NCBI GenBank assembly: GCA_045862895.1
Contig: BTUO01000005.1
Location: 207,980-271,979 of the forward strand
Source: Acidobacteriota bacterium
Lineage (GTDB): Bacteria; Acidobacteriota; Thermoanaerobaculia; Multivoradales; JAGPDF01
DNA length: 64,000 bases
Direction: 5' to 3'
A program made the translations under genes and the position numbers. Below are positions 4,620 through 58,262 of the stretch, one piece after another; position 1 is the first letter of the stretch; every line of letters starts with the position of its first letter. Below the pieces are notes generated by a model, which worked only from the letters and a program-made list of their open reading frames with translations, searched no databases and had not been told where the DNA came from.

Positions 4620-5816
4620 TCAGAAGCGCGACGAAGCGCCGCCGCCGCCGAACTCGCCGCCTTCGCCCTCGAAGGCCGGGGGCTCCTCGGCCGGACGCGG
4701 CGCCGGCGCCAGCGCGGCGAGCGTCGCCGCCAGCTCGAGCCAACTCGCGTCCGAGCTCGCCCCGAGCAGCTCCCGGTCGGTGAAGCCGGACCAGGTCCGG
4801 TCCGGCCCTGCCGCGAAGCCGCGCCGCAGCGCCCAGGTCGCGGCCGCCAGCAGCGCGCCGGCGGCGAGCACCACCGCCCAGGCCGGCTCGAGGTCGAGGG
4901 CATCGACCAGCGTGGCGCCGGCGGCGAGCACCCCGAGCGCGCCGAGGGCGAGCTCCAGACGGTCCCGCCGCGCGATGCCGGAGACGAGCAGGAGCACGGG
5001 CAACGCCAGGACGACCAGCCAGCCGAACGCCGTCGCCAGCTCTTCGAAGCCGGGGAACAGGTCGAACCATCCACCGAAATCGCTGAGTCCGTGGGTGGCG
5101 ACCTGCGAAGGGTGGGCGGCGAACCAGAGCGTCACCAGAGCAACGACGTAGACCTCGACCGCGCGGCGCCGGTGAGCCACCGGACGTCGTGCGTCGCCGC
5201 GCCAGTGCCGGGCCGCGATCGCCAGTACCATCGCCGCGACGACCCAGCCGAGGCGCGCGGCGGGCAGCGCACCCAGCGCCAGCAGCAACCCGCCGGTCGC
5301 CGCCAGTCCGCTGCCTGCGATTCCCCAGCGCCGCGCCGCGGTCGCGGCGACGAACGCGACCCCGGCGCCGACGACGAAGGCGGTGCCGCGCCCGGGCAGA
5401 TTGGCGTCGTCGACCAGGAGCACGAGCGCGGCGACGCCGAAGCCGAGCGCGAGCGCGGCCAGCCCCTCCTCGACGCCGAATCCGCGCAGCCGCTGCGGCC
5501 CGAGCGCGAGTGCCGCCCCCCAGCCCGCGCCGACGGCGAGGATCGCCAGCCAGATCGCATGCGGGACCGAGTCGAAGGCGCCGTGGAATCCGATCGAGAG
5601 GAAGCTCGCCCCGAAGCCCCACGCGGCGACTCCGGCGACCAGGGTGAAGAAGAAGAAGAGCAGGCGGAAGGCGAGCCGCGCGCGGCGCCGGTCGTCGGGA
5701 AATCGAGCGCGCAGCGCTTCGGCCGTCGCGGCGTCGATGGCGCCGCCCGCGCGCCAGGCTTCGATCGCGCGGCGAACCTGGTGCCGCTCGTCGGCGGCGA
5801 CGAGCTCGGGCCTCAC
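4620..5816 (-). CDS. Polytopic membrane protein (DUF4401-like by synteny), GTG start overlapping upstream stop (GTGA)
   Basis: C-terminal 398 codons of the 745-aa ORF are a plausible multi-TM protein (LLFFFFTLVAGVAAWGFGASFL...); GTG at 5816..5814 overlaps TGA of the 5813..6796 gene; the N-terminal 347 codons are R/A/G-rich junk. Confidence 0.5.
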   Translation of the reverse strand: MRPELVAADERHQVRRAIEAWRAGGAIDAATAEALRARFPDDRRRARLAFRLLFFFFTLVAGVAAWGFGASFLSIGFHGAFDSVPHAIWLAILAVGAGWGAALALGPQRLRGFGVEEGLAALALGFGVAALVLLVDDANLPGRGTAFVVGAGVAFVAATAARRWGIAGSGLAATGGLLLALGALPAARLGWVVAAMVLAIAARHWRGDARRPVAHRRRAVEVYVVALVTLWFAAHPSQVATHGLSDFGGWFDLFPGFEELATAFGWLVVLALPVLLLVSGIARRDRLELALGALGVLAAGATLVDALDLEPAWAVVLAAGALLAAATWALRRGFAAGPDRTWSGFTDRELLGASSDASWLELAATLAALAPAPRPAEEPPAFEGEGGEFGGGGASSRF

Positions 5817-41265: not shown

Positions 41266-41730
41266 TCAGTCGTCGTCACCACCGTTGTCGTCGCCCGGCG
41301 GATCGTCGTTGCCGTTGCCACCGTTGTCGTCGCCCGGCGGATCGTCGTTGCCGTTGCCACCGTTGTCGTCGCCCGGCGGATCGTCGTTGCCGTTGCCACC
41401 GCGGTCGTCGCCGGGAGGATCGTCGTCGTTGCCCCCGCCCTGATCGGGCGTGCCGTCGTCGTCGCCACCCGGAGTTCCCGGCGCATCCCCCGGACCCTGA
41501 TCCGGCGTGCCGTCGTCGTCCGTGGGGCTGCCGCCGTTGTCGCCGGTGCCCTGGTCGGCGGTGCCGTCGTCGCCGCCCGAGCCCGAGCCGCCGGCATTCG
41601 GCAGGCTCGGACCGGTCGAGCTCGAGTTCTTGCCGCCTCCGCCCGAGCAGCCGGCGAAGAGCAGGACCAGCAGGGCGGCGCCGAGCGCCGGGGCGGGGGT
41701 CAGAAGCTTGCGGAGCTGAGTGCGGAACAT
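41266..41730 (-). CDS. Acidic Gly/Asp-rich lipoprotein with three perfect 13-aa tandem repeats (GGNGNDDPPGDDN)
   Basis: Lipobox LLFAGCSGG; AAGGGAGG RBS; repeats encoded by three perfect 39-bp units. Confidence 0.6.
   Translation of the reverse strand: MFRTQLRKLLTPAPALGAALLVLLFAGCSGGGGKNSSSTGPSLPNAGGSGSGGDDGTADQGTGDNGGSPTDDDGTPDQGPGDAPGTPGGDDDGTPDQGGGNDDDPPGDDRGGNGNDDPPGDDNGGNGNDDPPGDDNGGNGNDDPPGDDNGGDDD
41281..41397. repeat. 3 x 39-bp perfect tandem repeat (plus degenerate 4th copy) inside the lipoprotein CDS
   Basis: accgttgtcgtcgcccggcggatcgtcgttgccgttgcc repeated head-to-tail. Confidence 0.9.
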
Positions 41731-47061: not shown

Positions 47062-47553
47062 TCAGCGGCCGCCGCGGCCACGGCGCCGGCCGCCGTCGTC
47101 GCGTTGTCGCACGCCGAAGGTGGCTTCGAGACCGGCCAGCAGCTCGGCCTTCTCGGTCTCGCCGAGACGGGCCTCCGGATGCGCCACCAGATAGATCGGC
47201 AGCGGCATCTCGCCTTCGCGCAGCTCCTCGGCGGCCTCGTCGGCGTGACGTTGCGGCAGCTGCCATTCCGAGACGTTCAGATGCCGTCGACCGTTGGCGA
47301 CGTCCGAGGCGACCAGCCAGGAGACCGGCGCCACTCGCGAGTACCAGGGCCAGACGGTCCGGTTCGAGTGGCAGTCACCGCAGGTACGGTGGAACAGCTC
47401 GCGGGTGCGCGGCGAATCCCACGCCGGCTCGGCGACCACCGGCGGGTTGTCACGCGGCGCGCCGACCGGCAGCAGCTGCATCACGACGAACAGTCCGGCG
47501 ACCAGGCCGCCCAGGATCCCCCACTCGCGCCGGGTGAGACCGCGCCTCGCCAT
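47062..47553 (-). CDS. Haem-binding-domain (Haem_bd, CxxCH-like CGDCHS) membrane-anchored protein
   Basis: FHRTCGDCHSNRTVWPWYSRVAPVSWLVASDV...LNVSEW matches the Haem_bd family; ATG at 47553 with GGAGG RBS. Confidence 0.6.
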   Translation of the reverse strand: MARRGLTRREWGILGGLVAGLFVVMQLLPVGAPRDNPPVVAEPAWDSPRTRELFHRTCGDCHSNRTVWPWYSRVAPVSWLVASDVANGRRHLNVSEWQLPQRHADEAAEELREGEMPLPIYLVAHPEARLGETEKAELLAGLEATFGVRQRDDGGRRRGRGGR

Positions 47554-47555
47554 GC

Positions 47556-49658
47556 TCAAACCTCCGCGTCGCGCGGCTTGGCCACCAGCTGCACGACGAC
47601 TTCCATCTGACCGGTCTGCGGGAACAGGTCGACCAGAATCAGGGATTCGACCTCGAAGGCGTAGGCGAGCTCGGCCAGGTCGCGCGCCAGCGCCGCCGGA
47701 TGGCAGGAGACATAGGTCAGCCGCGCCGGCCGGCGCGCCACCAGCGCGGCACGCACGGCGCGGCCGAGCCCGGAGCGCGGCGGATCGACGACGACGCGAT
47801 CGACGCCGGCGGGCAGACCCTCGACGATCCAGGTGTCGACCGCCTGCGCGACGACCTCGATCGACTCGAGGCGCGCGACGCGCGCGTTCTTGCGCGCCAG
47901 CCGGGCCGCGATGCGATCCCCTTCGACCGCGGTGACGCGGCCGTAGCGACCGGCGAGCGGCAGCGCGAAGAGTCCGACGCCGGCGTAGAGATCGAAAGCG
48001 CTCTCGCCCTGCCAGGGGCCGACGACGCGGTCGACGAGCTCGTCGAGCAGACCGGCGTGCCCCTGGAAGAAACCGCGCGCGTCGAAGTGGAGCTCGTGGC
48101 CGGCGACCCGGCGCACCAGCTCGGCGCCGAGGTAGCCGCCGACGGCGGGGGCCGCGGCGATCTCGCCGCCATCGCCCACGGCGAGGTCGACGCGCGGCGG
48201 CAGCGGTGACGCCAGGCGCTCGCCGAGCGTCGTCACCGCGCGCTCGAGGTCGGGCACGAGGATCGGGCAGCGCTCGACCACGACCAGATGGTGCGAGCCG
48301 CGTGCGTGATAGCCGACGCGCGCCGCGCCGTCCGGCCCCTCGTCGACGTGGACGCTGGTGCGCAGCCGGTAGCCCCAGGCCGCGCCGGCGACGATCTCGC
48401 TCGGCGGAGGCAGGAGCTGTTTCGACAGCTTCGCGAGGGTCTCGAGCGTCGCGCGCGACTTCCACTCGAGCTGGGTCCGTTCGTCGAGGTGCTGGAGGTC
48501 GCAGCCGCCGCACTCGGCGAAGTGCGGACACGGCGGCTCGCGCCGGCCCGGTCCGGGCGCCAGCACTTCGACCACTTCGCCGCGGCCGTAGTCGGGCCGG
48601 CGCTCGGTCAGCCGGACGCGGACGCGGTCGCCGGGCGCCGTCCGCGGCACGAACACCGGTACCCCTTCGAAGCGGGCCAGGCCGTCCCCTCCCGCCACCA
48701 GTTTCTCGATGGCGAGCTCGACCTCGTCGAGGCCGGCCAGCCGGAGGCCGACCGGCGGCGGACCGGTCGGCTCGAGCGGCGGCCTCGCCCTCTCTTCGCG
48801 CCGCGGCCGTTCGCGCCGTTCGTCGGGACCGCGCCGCGGGCGTTCGCGGGGCGGAGCTCCTCGACTCGGACCGCGGTCGCCGAACCCGGGGCGGCGGCCG
48901 CGATCGCCGGCTCCGGCGCCGGGCTCCCGATGGCGATCCGGCGCACCCCGGCGGGCGGGAGCGCCGCCCACGGGTCTCCGCGAGTCCTCCGGCCGGCGGG
49001 GTCGGTACCCCTCCGGCCGCGGCGGACGATCCCCGGAGCGCGGCGGGCGCTCTCCGGATCGCGGGGGCCGATCGCCGGCGCGCGGCGGGCGGTCCCCCGT
49101 GCGTGGCGGACGATCGCCCGTTCGTGCGGGACGGTCGCCAAACCTCGGCGGACGGTCGCCCGCGCGAGCGGCGCGGTCGCCGAATCGTGGCGCTCGATCG
49201 CCGGCGCGAGCGGGACGGTCGCCGAACCGTGGCGGGCGATCGCCGGCGCGAGCGGGACGGTCACCGGGTCGTGGCGGGCGGTCCCCGGATCGCGGCGGAC
49301 GCTCGTCGGATCGCGGCGGACGATCACCGGCTCGCGGCGGACGCTCGTCGGATCGCGGCGGGTAGCCGGCCCGGCCGCGCGGCGGACGCTCGTCGGATCG
49401 CGGCGGACGACGATCGCCGGGCCGCTGCGGACGCTCTCCGGGTCGCGCCGGACGCTCGCCCGGGCGCGCGGGCCGCTCTCCGGTGCGCGGCGGGCGGTCG
49501 CCGCCGGCTCGCCCGCGCGTATCGGGTGAGCGCTCGCGCCCCGCGGGGCCTCGCGGTCGGTCTCCCGACGAGCTTCGGCGGTCTCCGGAGCCCGGTCGCA
49601 CCGGGCCCCTCCCCCCGCGTCCACCGCGTCCACCCGATCCTCCGTCTCGTCCGTTCAC
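47556..49658 (-). CDS. rlmD: 23S rRNA (uracil-C5)-methyltransferase RlmD/RumA-like with about 300-aa RGG / RPPRxGD-repeat N-terminal extension
   Basis: C-terminal 400 aa: TRAM domain, 4Fe-4S Cys cluster (CPHFAECGGCDLQHL), SAM-MTase motifs (FDLYAGVGLF, VDPPRSG); in-frame upstream GTG at 49658 overlaps MBL-hydrolase TGA (GTGA) with GGAGG 6 nt upstream; catalytic core alone starts near 48760. Confidence 0.55.
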   Translation of the reverse strand: MNGRDGGSGGRGGRGGRGPVRPGSGDRRSSSGDRPRGPAGRERSPDTRGRAGGDRPPRTGERPARPGERPARPGERPQRPGDRRPPRSDERPPRGRAGYPPRSDERPPRAGDRPPRSDERPPRSGDRPPRPGDRPARAGDRPPRFGDRPARAGDRAPRFGDRAARAGDRPPRFGDRPARTGDRPPRTGDRPPRAGDRPPRSGERPPRSGDRPPRPEGYRPRRPEDSRRPVGGAPARRGAPDRHREPGAGAGDRGRRPGFGDRGPSRGAPPRERPRRGPDERRERPRREERARPPLEPTGPPPVGLRLAGLDEVELAIEKLVAGGDGLARFEGVPVFVPRTAPGDRVRVRLTERRPDYGRGEVVEVLAPGPGRREPPCPHFAECGGCDLQHLDERTQLEWKSRATLETLAKLSKQLLPPPSEIVAGAAWGYRLRTSVHVDEGPDGAARVGYHARGSHHLVVVERCPILVPDLERAVTTLGERLASPLPPRVDLAVGDGGEIAAAPAVGGYLGAELVRRVAGHELHFDARGFFQGHAGLLDELVDRVVGPWQGESAFDLYAGVGLFALPLAGRYGRVTAVEGDRIAARLARKNARVARLESIEVVAQAVDTWIVEGLPAGVDRVVVDPPRSGLGRAVRAALVARRPARLTYVSCHPAALARDLAELAYAFEVESLILVDLFPQTGQMEVVVQLVAKPRDAEV
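48977..49487. repeat. Array of degenerate 21-nt (7-codon) tandem repeats encoding RPxRxGD units
   Basis: Period-21 nucleotide repeats visible in all frames; in RlmD frame gives GDRPPRFGDRPARAGDRAPRFGDR... Confidence 0.7.
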
Positions 49659-50491
49659 GCGGCCTCCGGCACCAGCAAGTGAACCCGTCCGGCCAGCCCG
49701 TGCAGCCGCCGCGCGACCTCGACTTCGAGCTCGCGACGGCTGTGACGGCGAGACAGGTGATGGAGCACGATCGCTTCGCAGCCGGCCAGGCGCCCGGCGG
49801 CTGCTTCGAGGTCCTCGACGTGGAGGTGACCGTAGGCCGAGCCGCGCTCGCGGGTGTCGCCGCCGAGGAAGGTGCACTCGACCAACAGGACCCGGCTCTC
49901 GCCCAGTCTCCTCGCGAGATCGAAGACGCCCGGGCCGGTGTCGCCGCAGTACGAGAGCAGGATCTCCTCGCGCTCGACGTCGACCGGGAATCCGTCGTGG
50001 CGGCGGCGCGCGATCTCCTCGCCCGGCACGCCGGCGAGCTCCGGCAGCAAACGCCGGCGGCGGCGGATCAGGTGATATCCGACCGAGGGGACGACGTGGT
50101 CGACGGCGAAGGCCTCGACCGCGAAGCCGCCCGCCAGCTCGATCCGGTGCCCCGGCTCGACTCCGACGATCTCGCGCGGATAGGTCCCCCGCTCGAGCCG
50201 CTCGGCCGCGGCGACGAAGCGCTCGAGGTCGTCGGCGATCGCCGCCGGGCAGACCACGCGGGTCGAGCCGGCGCCCTGGAGCTTCCTCTGGGAGAGCAAC
50301 CAGGGGACGCCGAGCGCGTGATCGAGATGGCCGTGGGTGAGGAACAGGTCGCGCACGCCGACCTGCGCCGGCGCGCCGCGGCCGGCATCGAATGCGATGC
50401 CGGGAGGTCGGACCCGGAACCAGGTCTCCTCACCGGCGCGCGAGAAACCCTCGATCGAGAGCTCCCCCACCACGAGCGCGCCGGCGGCCAC
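49655..50491 (-). CDS. MBL-fold metallo-hydrolase (RNase Z/RNase BN-like short form)
   Basis: HxHxDH motif (LTHGHLDHALG) and downstream His/Asp ligands. Confidence 0.7.
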   Translation of the reverse strand: MAAGALVVGELSIEGFSRAGEETWFRVRPPGIAFDAGRGAPAQVGVRDLFLTHGHLDHALGVPWLLSQRKLQGAGSTRVVCPAAIADDLERFVAAAERLERGTYPREIVGVEPGHRIELAGGFAVEAFAVDHVVPSVGYHLIRRRRRLLPELAGVPGEEIARRRHDGFPVDVEREEILLSYCGDTGPGVFDLARRLGESRVLLVECTFLGGDTRERGSAYGHLHVEDLEAAAGRLAGCEAIVLHHLSRRHSRRELEVEVARRLHGLAGRVHLLVPEAA

Positions 50492-50498
50492 GTCGGGC

Positions 50499-51566
50499 TC
50501 AGATCTCGGTGTAGATCCAGCGCCGCAGCGGCTCGAGCCGCTTCGACAGCCCCGCCGTGTCGGGGTCGATCAGCCAGAGCGCGGCGGCGATCGACGACAG
50601 CAGCGAGTTGCCGTCCTGCGGCGTGAAGCAGAAGCCGTAGAGCTCGCGATTCCGCTTGACCGCCAGCGTCGGCAGCACCACCACGGTCTGCGACAGGATG
50701 CGGCCGTAGTAGCCGTGGTCGCGGCCGAAGCTGAACACCTCGTTCGAGTTCCTCTTGTCGGTCACCGCCACGCGGACGTTGGCGCGCAGGCGCTCGATCA
50801 TCTCGTTCTTGGTGATGTCGCGATCGAACACCAGGTTGAACCAGATCGAGTGCATGTACTGCGTGTTGAGCTTGACCGCGCTCGAGAACAGGTCGAACTT
50901 CTGGCCGAGCGTCTCGAAGACGTGGAAGGCGTCGTGGGCGTGGTGGGTGCCGAACTCGGCGTCGTCGTGCTTGCCGACCTGGGGCGAGGGCGCGAAGTCC
51001 TTGGTCTGCGAGATGTCGTTGGCCCGCCGCATGCAGACGAAGTTTCCGCGCGCGAGCGAGTACTGGTCGCCGCCCTCGTGGCAAAGCGTCTTGATCAGCG
51101 TCGTGATGTTGTGGGTGTTGCAGGAGACGACCTGGATGAAGCGGTCCTCTCCGGGCCGCAGCACCTCGTCGTTGATGCCTCGGGCGTAGGGAACGCCGAA
51201 GCCGAACTCGCTGCCCTGGGCGATGAAGCCCTTCGGCCCCTGGATGTGGTCGTAGTACTTCGCCTTCATGTCGTTGCCGGCGGGAGTGCAGTCGATCACC
51301 ACCGTGGCGCGGGCGATCGCCTCCTCGGCCTCGAAGTCGACCTTGTGGCCGAGCTTCTCGAAGGCGTCCTTCTGGTCGGAGTCGGTGGCCAGCTTGGCGC
51401 CGCGCGACAGCAGGTGGTGGATCTTCGAACGGTCCGAGGCGAGCGGGGTGCGCTTGTGGAAGGTCACTTCGTCGAGACCGAGCTTCTCGCGGAAGTCGGT
51501 GAACAGGCCGATCAGCGGCTCGCCGATCGTGCCCGTGCCCACGATGTGGACGACGTTCTTCTTCAT
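50499..51566 (-). CDS. NAD(P)-dependent dehydrogenase, type II (archaeal-type) glyceraldehyde-3-phosphate dehydrogenase-like
   Basis: N-terminal Rossmann GTGTIG and catalytic VSCNTHNITT motif; GGAGGAG RBS; overlapping 520-aa ORF is artefact. Confidence 0.55.
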   Translation of the reverse strand: MKKNVVHIVGTGTIGEPLIGLFTDFREKLGLDEVTFHKRTPLASDRSKIHHLLSRGAKLATDSDQKDAFEKLGHKVDFEAEEAIARATVVIDCTPAGNDMKAKYYDHIQGPKGFIAQGSEFGFGVPYARGINDEVLRPGEDRFIQVVSCNTHNITTLIKTLCHEGGDQYSLARGNFVCMRRANDISQTKDFAPSPQVGKHDDAEFGTHHAHDAFHVFETLGQKFDLFSSAVKLNTQYMHSIWFNLVFDRDITKNEMIERLRANVRVAVTDKRNSNEVFSFGRDHGYYGRILSQTVVVLPTLAVKRNRELYGFCFTPQDGNSLLSSIAAALWLIDPDTAGLSKRLEPLRRWIYTEI

Positions 51567-54990: not shown

Positions 54991-55083
54991 TTACTTCTTC
55001 TTGGCCTTCTTGGCAGCCTTCTTGGCCTTCTTGGCCGGCTTCTTGGCGGCCTTCTTGGCCTTCTTCGCCTTCTTGGTGGCCAT
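54991..55083 (-). CDS. 30-aa lysine/alanine-rich basic peptide MATKKAKKAKKAAKKPAKKAKKAAKKAKKK
   Basis: ATG with AGAGGAGG 8 nt upstream, TAA stop, followed by terminator; not in ORF track (under 60 aa). Confidence 0.45.
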   Translation of the reverse strand: MATKKAKKAKKAAKKPAKKAKKAAKKAKKK

Positions 55084-55135
55084 TTCGCGAGCCTCCTCTA
55101 TGGCGTCGGGCACAATTGCCCGGAGCGCTCCTTCG

Positions 55136-57916
<2,781 letters not shown>

Positions 57917-58262
57917 TCGTCCTCCCGTCCGTTCCAGGTCGCGGCCCCCGGCCGCCCGCTCTTTTCGATCGCTCCCGCCGACTTGCGGCGCAGGCGGGGC
58001 CCGTGCCTCTTGACGAGTGCCCAGAAACGTGTGCAGTTCTCTGGGAAAGGAAAGGTAAGCCACCCGGGACCCTCTGTCAAGGGTCCGACCCCAAGATGTT
58101 GTGGTTGTCACACGGTCCGACCCCAAGGAGTGGGCGGTTTCGACCTTCGTTGCCGCAGTGCGGCATCGAGCTCGCGAGTCGGCTGCGGCGCGGTTTCCGG
58201 CCCGACCGGGGGGTCCCGGTTGCCGCGCCGCGGCGCCGCCGGGCGGCACCGTCGTGGCAGGA

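Follow-up and report, generated by a model that had tools for sequence, protein, structure and literature searches.

RlmD (RumA) of Escherichia coli, the methyltransferase that forms 5-methyluridine (m5U) 1939 in 23S rRNA (PDB IDs: 1UWV and 2BH2), is 433 amino acids (aa) long, begins at its TRAM domain and carries no disordered extension. Disordered additions are known from other RNA-handling proteins. In type II RhlB such an addition, placed at the N-terminus, raises helicase activity and brings about RNA-dependent phase separation (PMC13462270), and atypical Rho factors carry Arg-rich disordered regions, either as an insertion or at the N-terminus (PMC11347177). Fibrillarin (Nop1), an rRNA 2'-O-methyltransferase, likewise has a disordered Arg/Gly-rich N-terminal region that opens with RGG repeats (PMC9957100). 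Here we describe an RlmD gene on a stretch of 64,000 nucleotides (nt) from an Acidobacteriota genome (contig BTUO01000005.1; 73% GC), called the window below. Residues 301-700 of its product contain the same parts as the E. coli enzyme, namely a TRAM domain, four Fe-S cysteines and an m5U methyltransferase domain. The 300 residues ahead of TRAM are made of an RGG box, 22 GDRPPR-type heptads and an Arg-rich linker. Other RNA enzymes were already known to bear tails of this kind; on RlmD a cationic disordered tail, recurring within one bacterial class, appears to be new. The evidence that it is real and translated is good, and by analogy it may have an RNA-related function. The parts of the gene are as follows.

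47556-49658, minus strand: complete RlmD gene with its N-terminal extension, 700 aa plus stop (open reading frame (ORF) listing; TIGR00479 score)

49663-49667, minus strand: GGAGG, a Shine-Dalgarno-like motif with a 4-nt spacer to the GTG, present also at the related loci L001 and L004

49655-49658, minus strand: GTGA junction, with the GTG start of RlmD over the TGA stop of the upstream metallo-beta-lactamase (MBL)-fold gene (read from the sequence)

49605-49658, minus strand: RGG box, aa 1-18, VNGRDGGSGGRGGRGGRG, with three RGG (translation)

49018-49503, minus strand: tandem array of a 21-nt (42-nt) unit encoding 22 heptads xG(D/E)RP(P/A)R (Tandem Repeats Finder, shuffles, heptad parsing)

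48759-49016, minus strand: non-repetitive Arg/Pro/Glu-rich linker, aa 215-300 (86 aa), including GTG 48971 (aa 230); predicted local distance difference test (pLDDT) < 50

48570-48758, minus strand: conserved N-terminal block and TRAM domain, aa 301-363 (PF01938, E = 1.3e-9; alignments A2 and A3)

48267-48530, minus strand: putative Fe-S cysteines C377, C383 and C386 (CPHFAECGGC) and C464, invariant in the 31-sequence alignment A3

47583-48131, minus strand: predicted S-adenosylmethionine (SAM)-dependent m5U methyltransferase domain with DLYAGVG, catalytic C652 (47703-47705) and E686 (PF05958, Foldseek, invariant columns)

Judged by its sequence, the core is a bona fide RlmD/RumA enzyme, and U1939 of 23S rRNA is its predicted target. 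The whole protein scores 244.1 bits against the equivalog model TIGR00479 (rumA; cut-off 183.55); a second RlmD model, NF009639, gives 226.9, which is below its cut-off of 458. Pfam detected tRNA_U5-meth_tr (PF05958) in the core, and the TRAM match (PF01938) covers aa 312-363, modelled as a beta-barrel with pLDDT > 90. A phmmer search of the PDB returned E. coli RumA (1UWV/2BH2) with E = 6e-49, and RumA (2BH2) is the best Foldseek match for the AlphaFold2 core (template modelling score (TM) 0.81, E = 9e-39). All 31 sequences share the SAM motif DLYAGVG, C652 (in TYVSCHPA) and E686 without variation. The four invariant cysteines are putative [4Fe-4S] ligands, and we take C377, C383, C386 and C464 to correspond to Cys81, Cys87, Cys90 and Cys162 of RumA. 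An earlier sequence-only reading of the window had placed the beginning of the core at around 48760, in agreement with the conserved RlmD block, which begins at aa 301 (nt 48758).

On the minus strand the reading frame runs uninterrupted from 49877 to the stop codon at 47556-47558, so that it stays open upstream of the core as that reading had said; from GTG 49658 it encodes 700 aa. The GTG (49658-49656) overlaps the TGA (49657-49655) of the MBL-fold gene exactly where the GTGA overlap had been described. The GGAGG is also present (49667-49663), although its spacer is 4 nt and not the 6 nt first given. The only canonical in-frame starts upstream of TRAM are GTG 49658, GTG 49601 (aa 20) and GTG 48971 (aa 230); the next one, GTG 48698 (aa 321), lies within the TRAM domain. 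A start at GTG 49877, which would give a 773-aa ORF, was rejected. It falls within the MBL gene, which is read in a different frame, and GC content at third codon positions (GC3) of the RlmD frame is only 0.46-0.58 there. At the related locus L005, a stop codon lies in frame 72 nt upstream of the ATG.

Tandem Repeats Finder describes the single array at 49018-49503 either as 22.9 copies with a period of 21 or as 11.4 copies with a period of 42 (76% matches, score 334). The 7-aa unit encoded by period-21 repeats was recognised correctly in the sequence-only reading, although the heptads number 22 rather than about 25. We searched the 64 kb window for the degenerate pattern G-D/E-R-P/A-P/A-R and compared the result with 100 shuffles. 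The array holds 21 minus-strand matches in a 21-nt register, except for two 45-nt gaps. Sixteen of these 21 are perfect; the remaining 63.5 kb hold one perfect match. In all, the window contains 68 matches; the shuffles gave 36.9 +/- 6.2, and none of them (0/100) reached 68. The composition of the extension is R 28%, P 21%, G 17%, D 9%, A 8% and E 6%, with no K and almost no hydrophobic residues; the aromatic residues of its 300 aa are four F and two Y. Intrinsic disorder and a strongly cationic character are predicted for it. The net charge is +41 and the isoelectric point 11.9, and the AlphaFold2 model has a pLDDT of 33-48 and no secondary structure for aa 1-295, compared with values above 90 for the core. 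A scan of the window for other Arg-rich tails gave only short segments, apparently out of frame. A structured RNA in the repeat region was considered and rejected, as no Rfam family matches there at E <= 0.1.

The likeness to fibrillarin is one of analogy and not of homology, since the two enzymes belong to unrelated catalytic families and make different modifications. The RGG box of the window RlmD measures only 18 aa, and the bulk of its tail consists of Pro/Asp-containing GDRPPR heptads with almost no Phe; it has no small nucleolar ribonucleoprotein context, and it is not known to be methylated on arginine. A fibrillarin-type glycine- and arginine-rich (GAR)/RGG domain has more than 10 RGG/RG, is dominated by Gly and Arg and has Phe interspersed. 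The extension is not of this type: beyond the RGG box (280 aa) it has 21% P, 15% D+E and GDRPPR heptads, with four Phe in total. Its predicted disorder, its charge and a composition conserved among relatives place it instead with the cationic disordered tails of the type II RhlB, Rho and RhlE-like kind. The regions of RhlB and Rho and the tail described here are all lineage-specific, fast-evolving, compositionally biased disordered additions to a conserved RNA-handling core; the hosts there are a helicase and a termination factor, whereas here the host is an rRNA base methyltransferase. The regions of RhlB and Rho are reported to strengthen RNA binding or activity and to cause phase separation. 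The comparison with Arg-rich tails of RNA helicases drawn in the sequence-only reading is a reasonable analogy. A literature search for RlmD together with 'intrinsically disordered' returned one paper, which to judge by its title and abstract concerns proteomics software, and nothing that broader literature searches returned dealt with an Arg-rich extension on an rRNA methyltransferase from bacteria.

The extension is very probably translated as part of RlmD. The alternative is a repetitive spacer or leader, untranslated throughout or apart from its last 77 aa, in which case RlmD would begin at GTG 48971 or, near TRAM, at a non-canonical codon. Gene callers list the closest relatives (P0001-P0004) at 393-418 aa, GTG 48971 has GGAG 4 nt upstream, and several frames are nearly open in the high-GC array. 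GC3 also favours the spacer, being 0.62-0.80 in the region and 0.88-0.96 (about 0.9) in the core. The period-3 codon-bias check suggested in the sequence-only reading was run and proved ambiguous alone, so comparative tests were used instead. GC content at codon positions 1, 2 and 3 of the extension is 0.90, 0.78 and 0.74, which would make 'GC3' highest in the +1 frame; being dictated by the R/P/G/D composition, this pattern is uninformative. The length of the open frame was rejected as evidence too, as the 81%-GC array leaves each of the six frames open or almost open, and orthologues with stops in the other frames were therefore used. Since there is no canonical start between aa 230 and the interior of TRAM, translation has to cover 77 aa or more of the Arg-rich region; for a start near 48760, no canonical in-frame codon exists.

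The comparative tests speak against the spacer. The RlmD frame of the extension contains no stops at nine of nine orthologous loci, and at every locus at least one other frame does contain them. At L023, with 62% GC, the other five frames carry 3, 10, 4, 9 and 2 stops. The RlmD frame is the sole frame that is stop-free in all orthologous loci tested. A frame-specific test of the ratio of nonsynonymous to synonymous substitution rates (dN/dS) was made with a nucleotide-guided alignment to L003, a strain whose core is 98% identical. The extension differs from L003 by one 21-nt indel and 39 substitutions, which fall 9/8/22 on codon positions 1/2/3 in the alignable part. Its dN/dS is 0.33 in the RlmD frame but 1.62 and 1.94 in the two remaining sense frames, and the core behaves alike, with 0.13 against 3.56 and 2.46. 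Codon alignments gave 0.20 for L001 and 0.32 for L004; these are protein-guided, which pushes dN down in repeats and counts against our interpretation, a bias from which the L003 test is free. They replaced nucleotide alignments to L001 and L004, in which non-triplet gaps arose as repeat artefacts. The frame-specific values indicate that the encoded peptide is under purifying selection. An antisense mirror ORF (48288-49529, plus strand) also has a low dN/dS of 0.36, as mirror frames do in general, and was rejected as a candidate. The mirror frame of the core is similarly low (0.25), and this ORF crosses the TRAM domain antisense and is not stop-free at every orthologous locus.

Some relatives carry the tail at the other end of the protein. 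C-terminal tails of like composition occur in P0074, P0076, P0087, P0099 and P0106, which form a sister group, and separately in P0112; that of P0099 contains GDRPPRREGRPPSGG units. These tails must be translated because they are located ahead of the stop codon. The start junction and the N-terminal peptide are conserved as well (see below), the starts called in the relatives lie at non-homologous positions, and the region matches no Rfam family. The spacer is largely excluded by these observations and we consider it very improbable. That the Arg-rich region belongs to the translated RlmD, as the sequence-only reading had argued, is supported by the junctions, the orthologue frames, the dN/dS values and the C-terminal tails.

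The nearest proteins come from uncultured Thermoanaerobaculia (Acidobacteriota), and the best GTDB species representative is 62% identical. At L001 (core 86% identical) the GTGA junction is preserved and an in-frame Arg-rich extension, GGAGGCCGCGTGA, runs from the same junction. L004 (core 85% identical) has a TTGA junction, a TTG start and an in-frame Arg-rich extension, GGAGGCGGCTTGA. L003 carries the same heptads as the window, and its 21-nt indel bears out the repeat-number variation among related genomes for which the earlier reading had asked. At L005, L008, L013, L015 and L051 an ATGA start overlap is followed by an RG-rich N-terminus. Such an N-terminus directly after the start codon is found at L001, L004, L005/P0032, P0057, L006, L008, L013, L015 and L051, with peptides such as VRERGAGGGDRGGRGGRG, MSERGERGGRGGRGG and MRGRQGG..., and is kept down to 56-65% core identity. 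Orthologues that start uniformly near TRAM, with the repeat absent or out of frame, are not what the DNA of the relatives contains. The starts called for L001 (5001, GTG), L003 (426, TTG) and L004 (652, GTG) lie at non-homologous positions, and the window codons homologous to those called in L003 and L001 are CTG and GTC, which are not start codons. Going by these codons, the short lengths of P0001-P0004 are gene-calling artefacts, by which the extension was removed in four of the four closest relatives (DNA examined for three).

Of the 120 best hits, taken as called, 10 carry an Arg-rich N-terminal tail, six a C-terminal tail and none both, the N-terminal count being an undercount. Clear N-terminal tails were found among 32 Acidobacteriota-like loci at L006, L008, L013, L015, L016, L018, L019, L023, L026, L036 and L051. 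A regular-expression survey of 80 loci found no tails outside the Acidobacteriota where its anchors worked, a weak negative as many anchors failed. The repeat unit differs between lineages: 7-aa GDRPPR in the window, about 45 aa in P0032, GGDDRRPSGPPRDRDDRRPPFQSR in L013, DRPARPxRP in L019 and RDDRGRRDD in L023. Across 23 tails, R makes up 17-32% and K at most 5%, and the net charge ranges from +8 to +41. Composition is conserved while sequence and length vary.

Similar heptads are also present on other proteins. A word-indexed search with the tail alone found GDRPPR-like repeats on an RluB-type pseudouridine synthase, IF-2 and a DEAD-box helicase. The heptads of RluB-type pseudouridine synthases (Burkholderia), IF-2 and DEAD-box helicases are near-identical to those of the window, and examples are an IF-2 fragment (P0122, GDRPPRTGDRPPRPAGDRPAGDRPPR), a pseudouridine synthase (P0130, GDRPPRPFGDRPPRAGDERPARPYGDRPARPAGDRPPR) and P0121; the host domains and taxa differ from ours. 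An exhaustive profile search with the tail alone returned 379 hits on very heterogeneous proteins, and on this ground the heptad was rejected as a homologous RNA-binding module. In terms of sequence, the heptad is convergent low complexity and not a shared mobile module or domain.

We favour, with some reserve, a single 700-aa RlmD whose translation begins at GTG 49658, in coupling with that of the upstream MBL-fold gene, and which uses its tail as an RNA-binding or tethering arm. The heptad block probably arose through slippage or unequal exchange of the 21-nt unit, so that it is always in frame and differs in copy number between strains. Adjoining the TRAM domain, the tail may serve as a sequence-independent arm that binds polyanions (RNA). 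With it the enzyme would capture pre-50S particles and 23S rRNA, nascent or misfolded, at a higher rate and stay on them longer; an RNA-chaperone activity is possible. Composition (rich in Arg, poor in Lys, net positive, free of hydrophobic residues) and not sequence would be under selection, and it is proposed that relatives carry different repeats, of different lengths and at either terminus, because of this. Taken by itself, the role in RNA binding or tethering, for which composition and analogy argue, has a chance that we put at even or slightly better.

Several observations weigh against a function. Many Thermoanaerobaculia RlmDs (L009-L012, L014, L020-L022, L027, L028, L034 and L035) have no tail, so the tail must be dispensable for the RlmD reaction. 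The tail diverges from that of L003 by 9%, compared with 2.4% for the core, and so changes about four times faster. In the exhaustive search, GDxPxxx heptads also occurred on many unrelated non-RNA proteins (such as peptidase M13, USP and TSP1), so the repeat as such is no module specific to RNA. These points would suit a tail that is translated but inert: a GC-rich 21-nt unit would have expanded neutrally as low complexity when replication slipped, in a terminal region that permits this, and would be tolerated because the RlmD core is left undisturbed. The range of tail lengths, from 0 to over 300 aa among close relatives, and the copy number that differs between 98%-identical strains fit such growth as well. 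An inert tail is at odds with the dN/dS of 0.2-0.33 in the RlmD frame, which indicates purifying selection on the peptide, with independent tails that converge on one composition from different repeat units at the N- or the C-terminus, and with the conservation of the RG-rich N-terminus in distant orthologues. We regard it as unlikely. The tail could also form or target condensates, through RNA-dependent phase separation or recruitment to a body for rRNA maturation or RNA degradation, by analogy with the GAR domain of fibrillarin and with type II RhlB. It is long, multivalent, Arg-rich and patterned in positive and negative charge, and an N-terminal RGG box on an rRNA methyltransferase repeats the layout of fibrillarin (PMC9957100). 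Bacterial precedents are RhlB (PMC13462270) and the predicted phase separation of Rho disordered regions (PMC11347177). Against this stand the scarcity of aromatic 'stickers' and the high proline content, both unlike classical GAR/RGG domains; condensates are not known from Thermoanaerobaculia. RlmD is, moreover, usually a low-abundance enzyme. A condensate would be a special case of the RNA-binding explanation, and we consider it improbable. Just as doubtful is its furthest form, in which Thermoanaerobaculia would have independently evolved a fibrillarin-like solution: the tail, at one terminus or the other depending on the subclade, would gather RlmD on nascent rRNA in an RNA-dependent condensate, a nucleolus-like compartment for rRNA maturation in a bacterium, with the 21-nt copy number tuning valency from strain to strain.

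The gene order around RlmD is conserved in relatives and consists of a 355-aa type-II-GAPDH-like gene, the MBL-fold gene, RlmD and a Haem_bd gene, after which HlyD/ABC-type transporter genes follow in the window and at L005. The upstream gene is the following.

49655-50491, minus strand: MBL-fold gene (PF12706; order conserved in L001, L002 and L005)

Its product scores below the cut-off of the RNase Z models (TIGR02651, 76 bits against 293). The 4-nt overlap between the MBL stop and the RlmD start that is present in the window recurs in at least L001, L004, L008, L015 and L051. This arrangement hints that the MBL-fold gene, possibly an RNA-processing nuclease, may be co-expressed with RlmD. 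At L005 (65% identical), a 46-aa ORF (4864-5004) lies between the MBL gene and RlmD with a 4-nt (ATGA) overlap on each side; the window has no counterpart. The 355-aa gene, two genes upstream of RlmD (50499-51566, minus strand), has no Pfam hit and keeps its position in L001 and L005. It shows a sub-threshold match to type II (archaeal-type) GAPDH (NF003251, 82 bits against 185; PDB 1B7G, E = 1e-8), and its GC content is 63-67%, compared with 73% for the window. Directly downstream of RlmD (47062-47553, minus strand) is the gene that is Haem_bd (PF14376) in orthologous loci. The encoded protein has an N-terminus that resembles a membrane anchor and, at its C-terminal end, a short RG-rich tail, RQRDDGGRRRGRGGR.

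Two other repeat-bearing ORFs were noted in the window. A 40-aa ORF, MPDAIEEAREMATKKAKKAKKAAKKPAKKAKKAAKKAKKK (54991-55113, minus strand), is built on a 21/33-nt tandem repeat just downstream of an ORF of about 1000 aa (55136-58249) and resembles a Lys/Ala-rich, histone-H1-like small protein. A 39-nt repeat (3.8 copies, 96% identity) that encodes GGNGNDDPPGDDN forms the C-terminus of a lipoprotein-like ORF of 154 aa (41266-41730, minus strand); the high identity suggests a recent expansion.

Since gene calling removed the tail in all four of the closest relatives, protein databases probably list too few of the disordered N-terminal extensions that high-GC genomes encode. If the tail of RlmD is functional, its occurrence would be a convergent parallel to the GAR domain of fibrillarin. 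The family would then also offer a natural test series on one core with a crystal structure, with no tail, an N-terminal tail or a C-terminal tail and with varied units and copy numbers. A functional tail would extend the lineage-specific cationic disordered regions known from helicases, RNase E and Rho to an enzyme that modifies rRNA bases.

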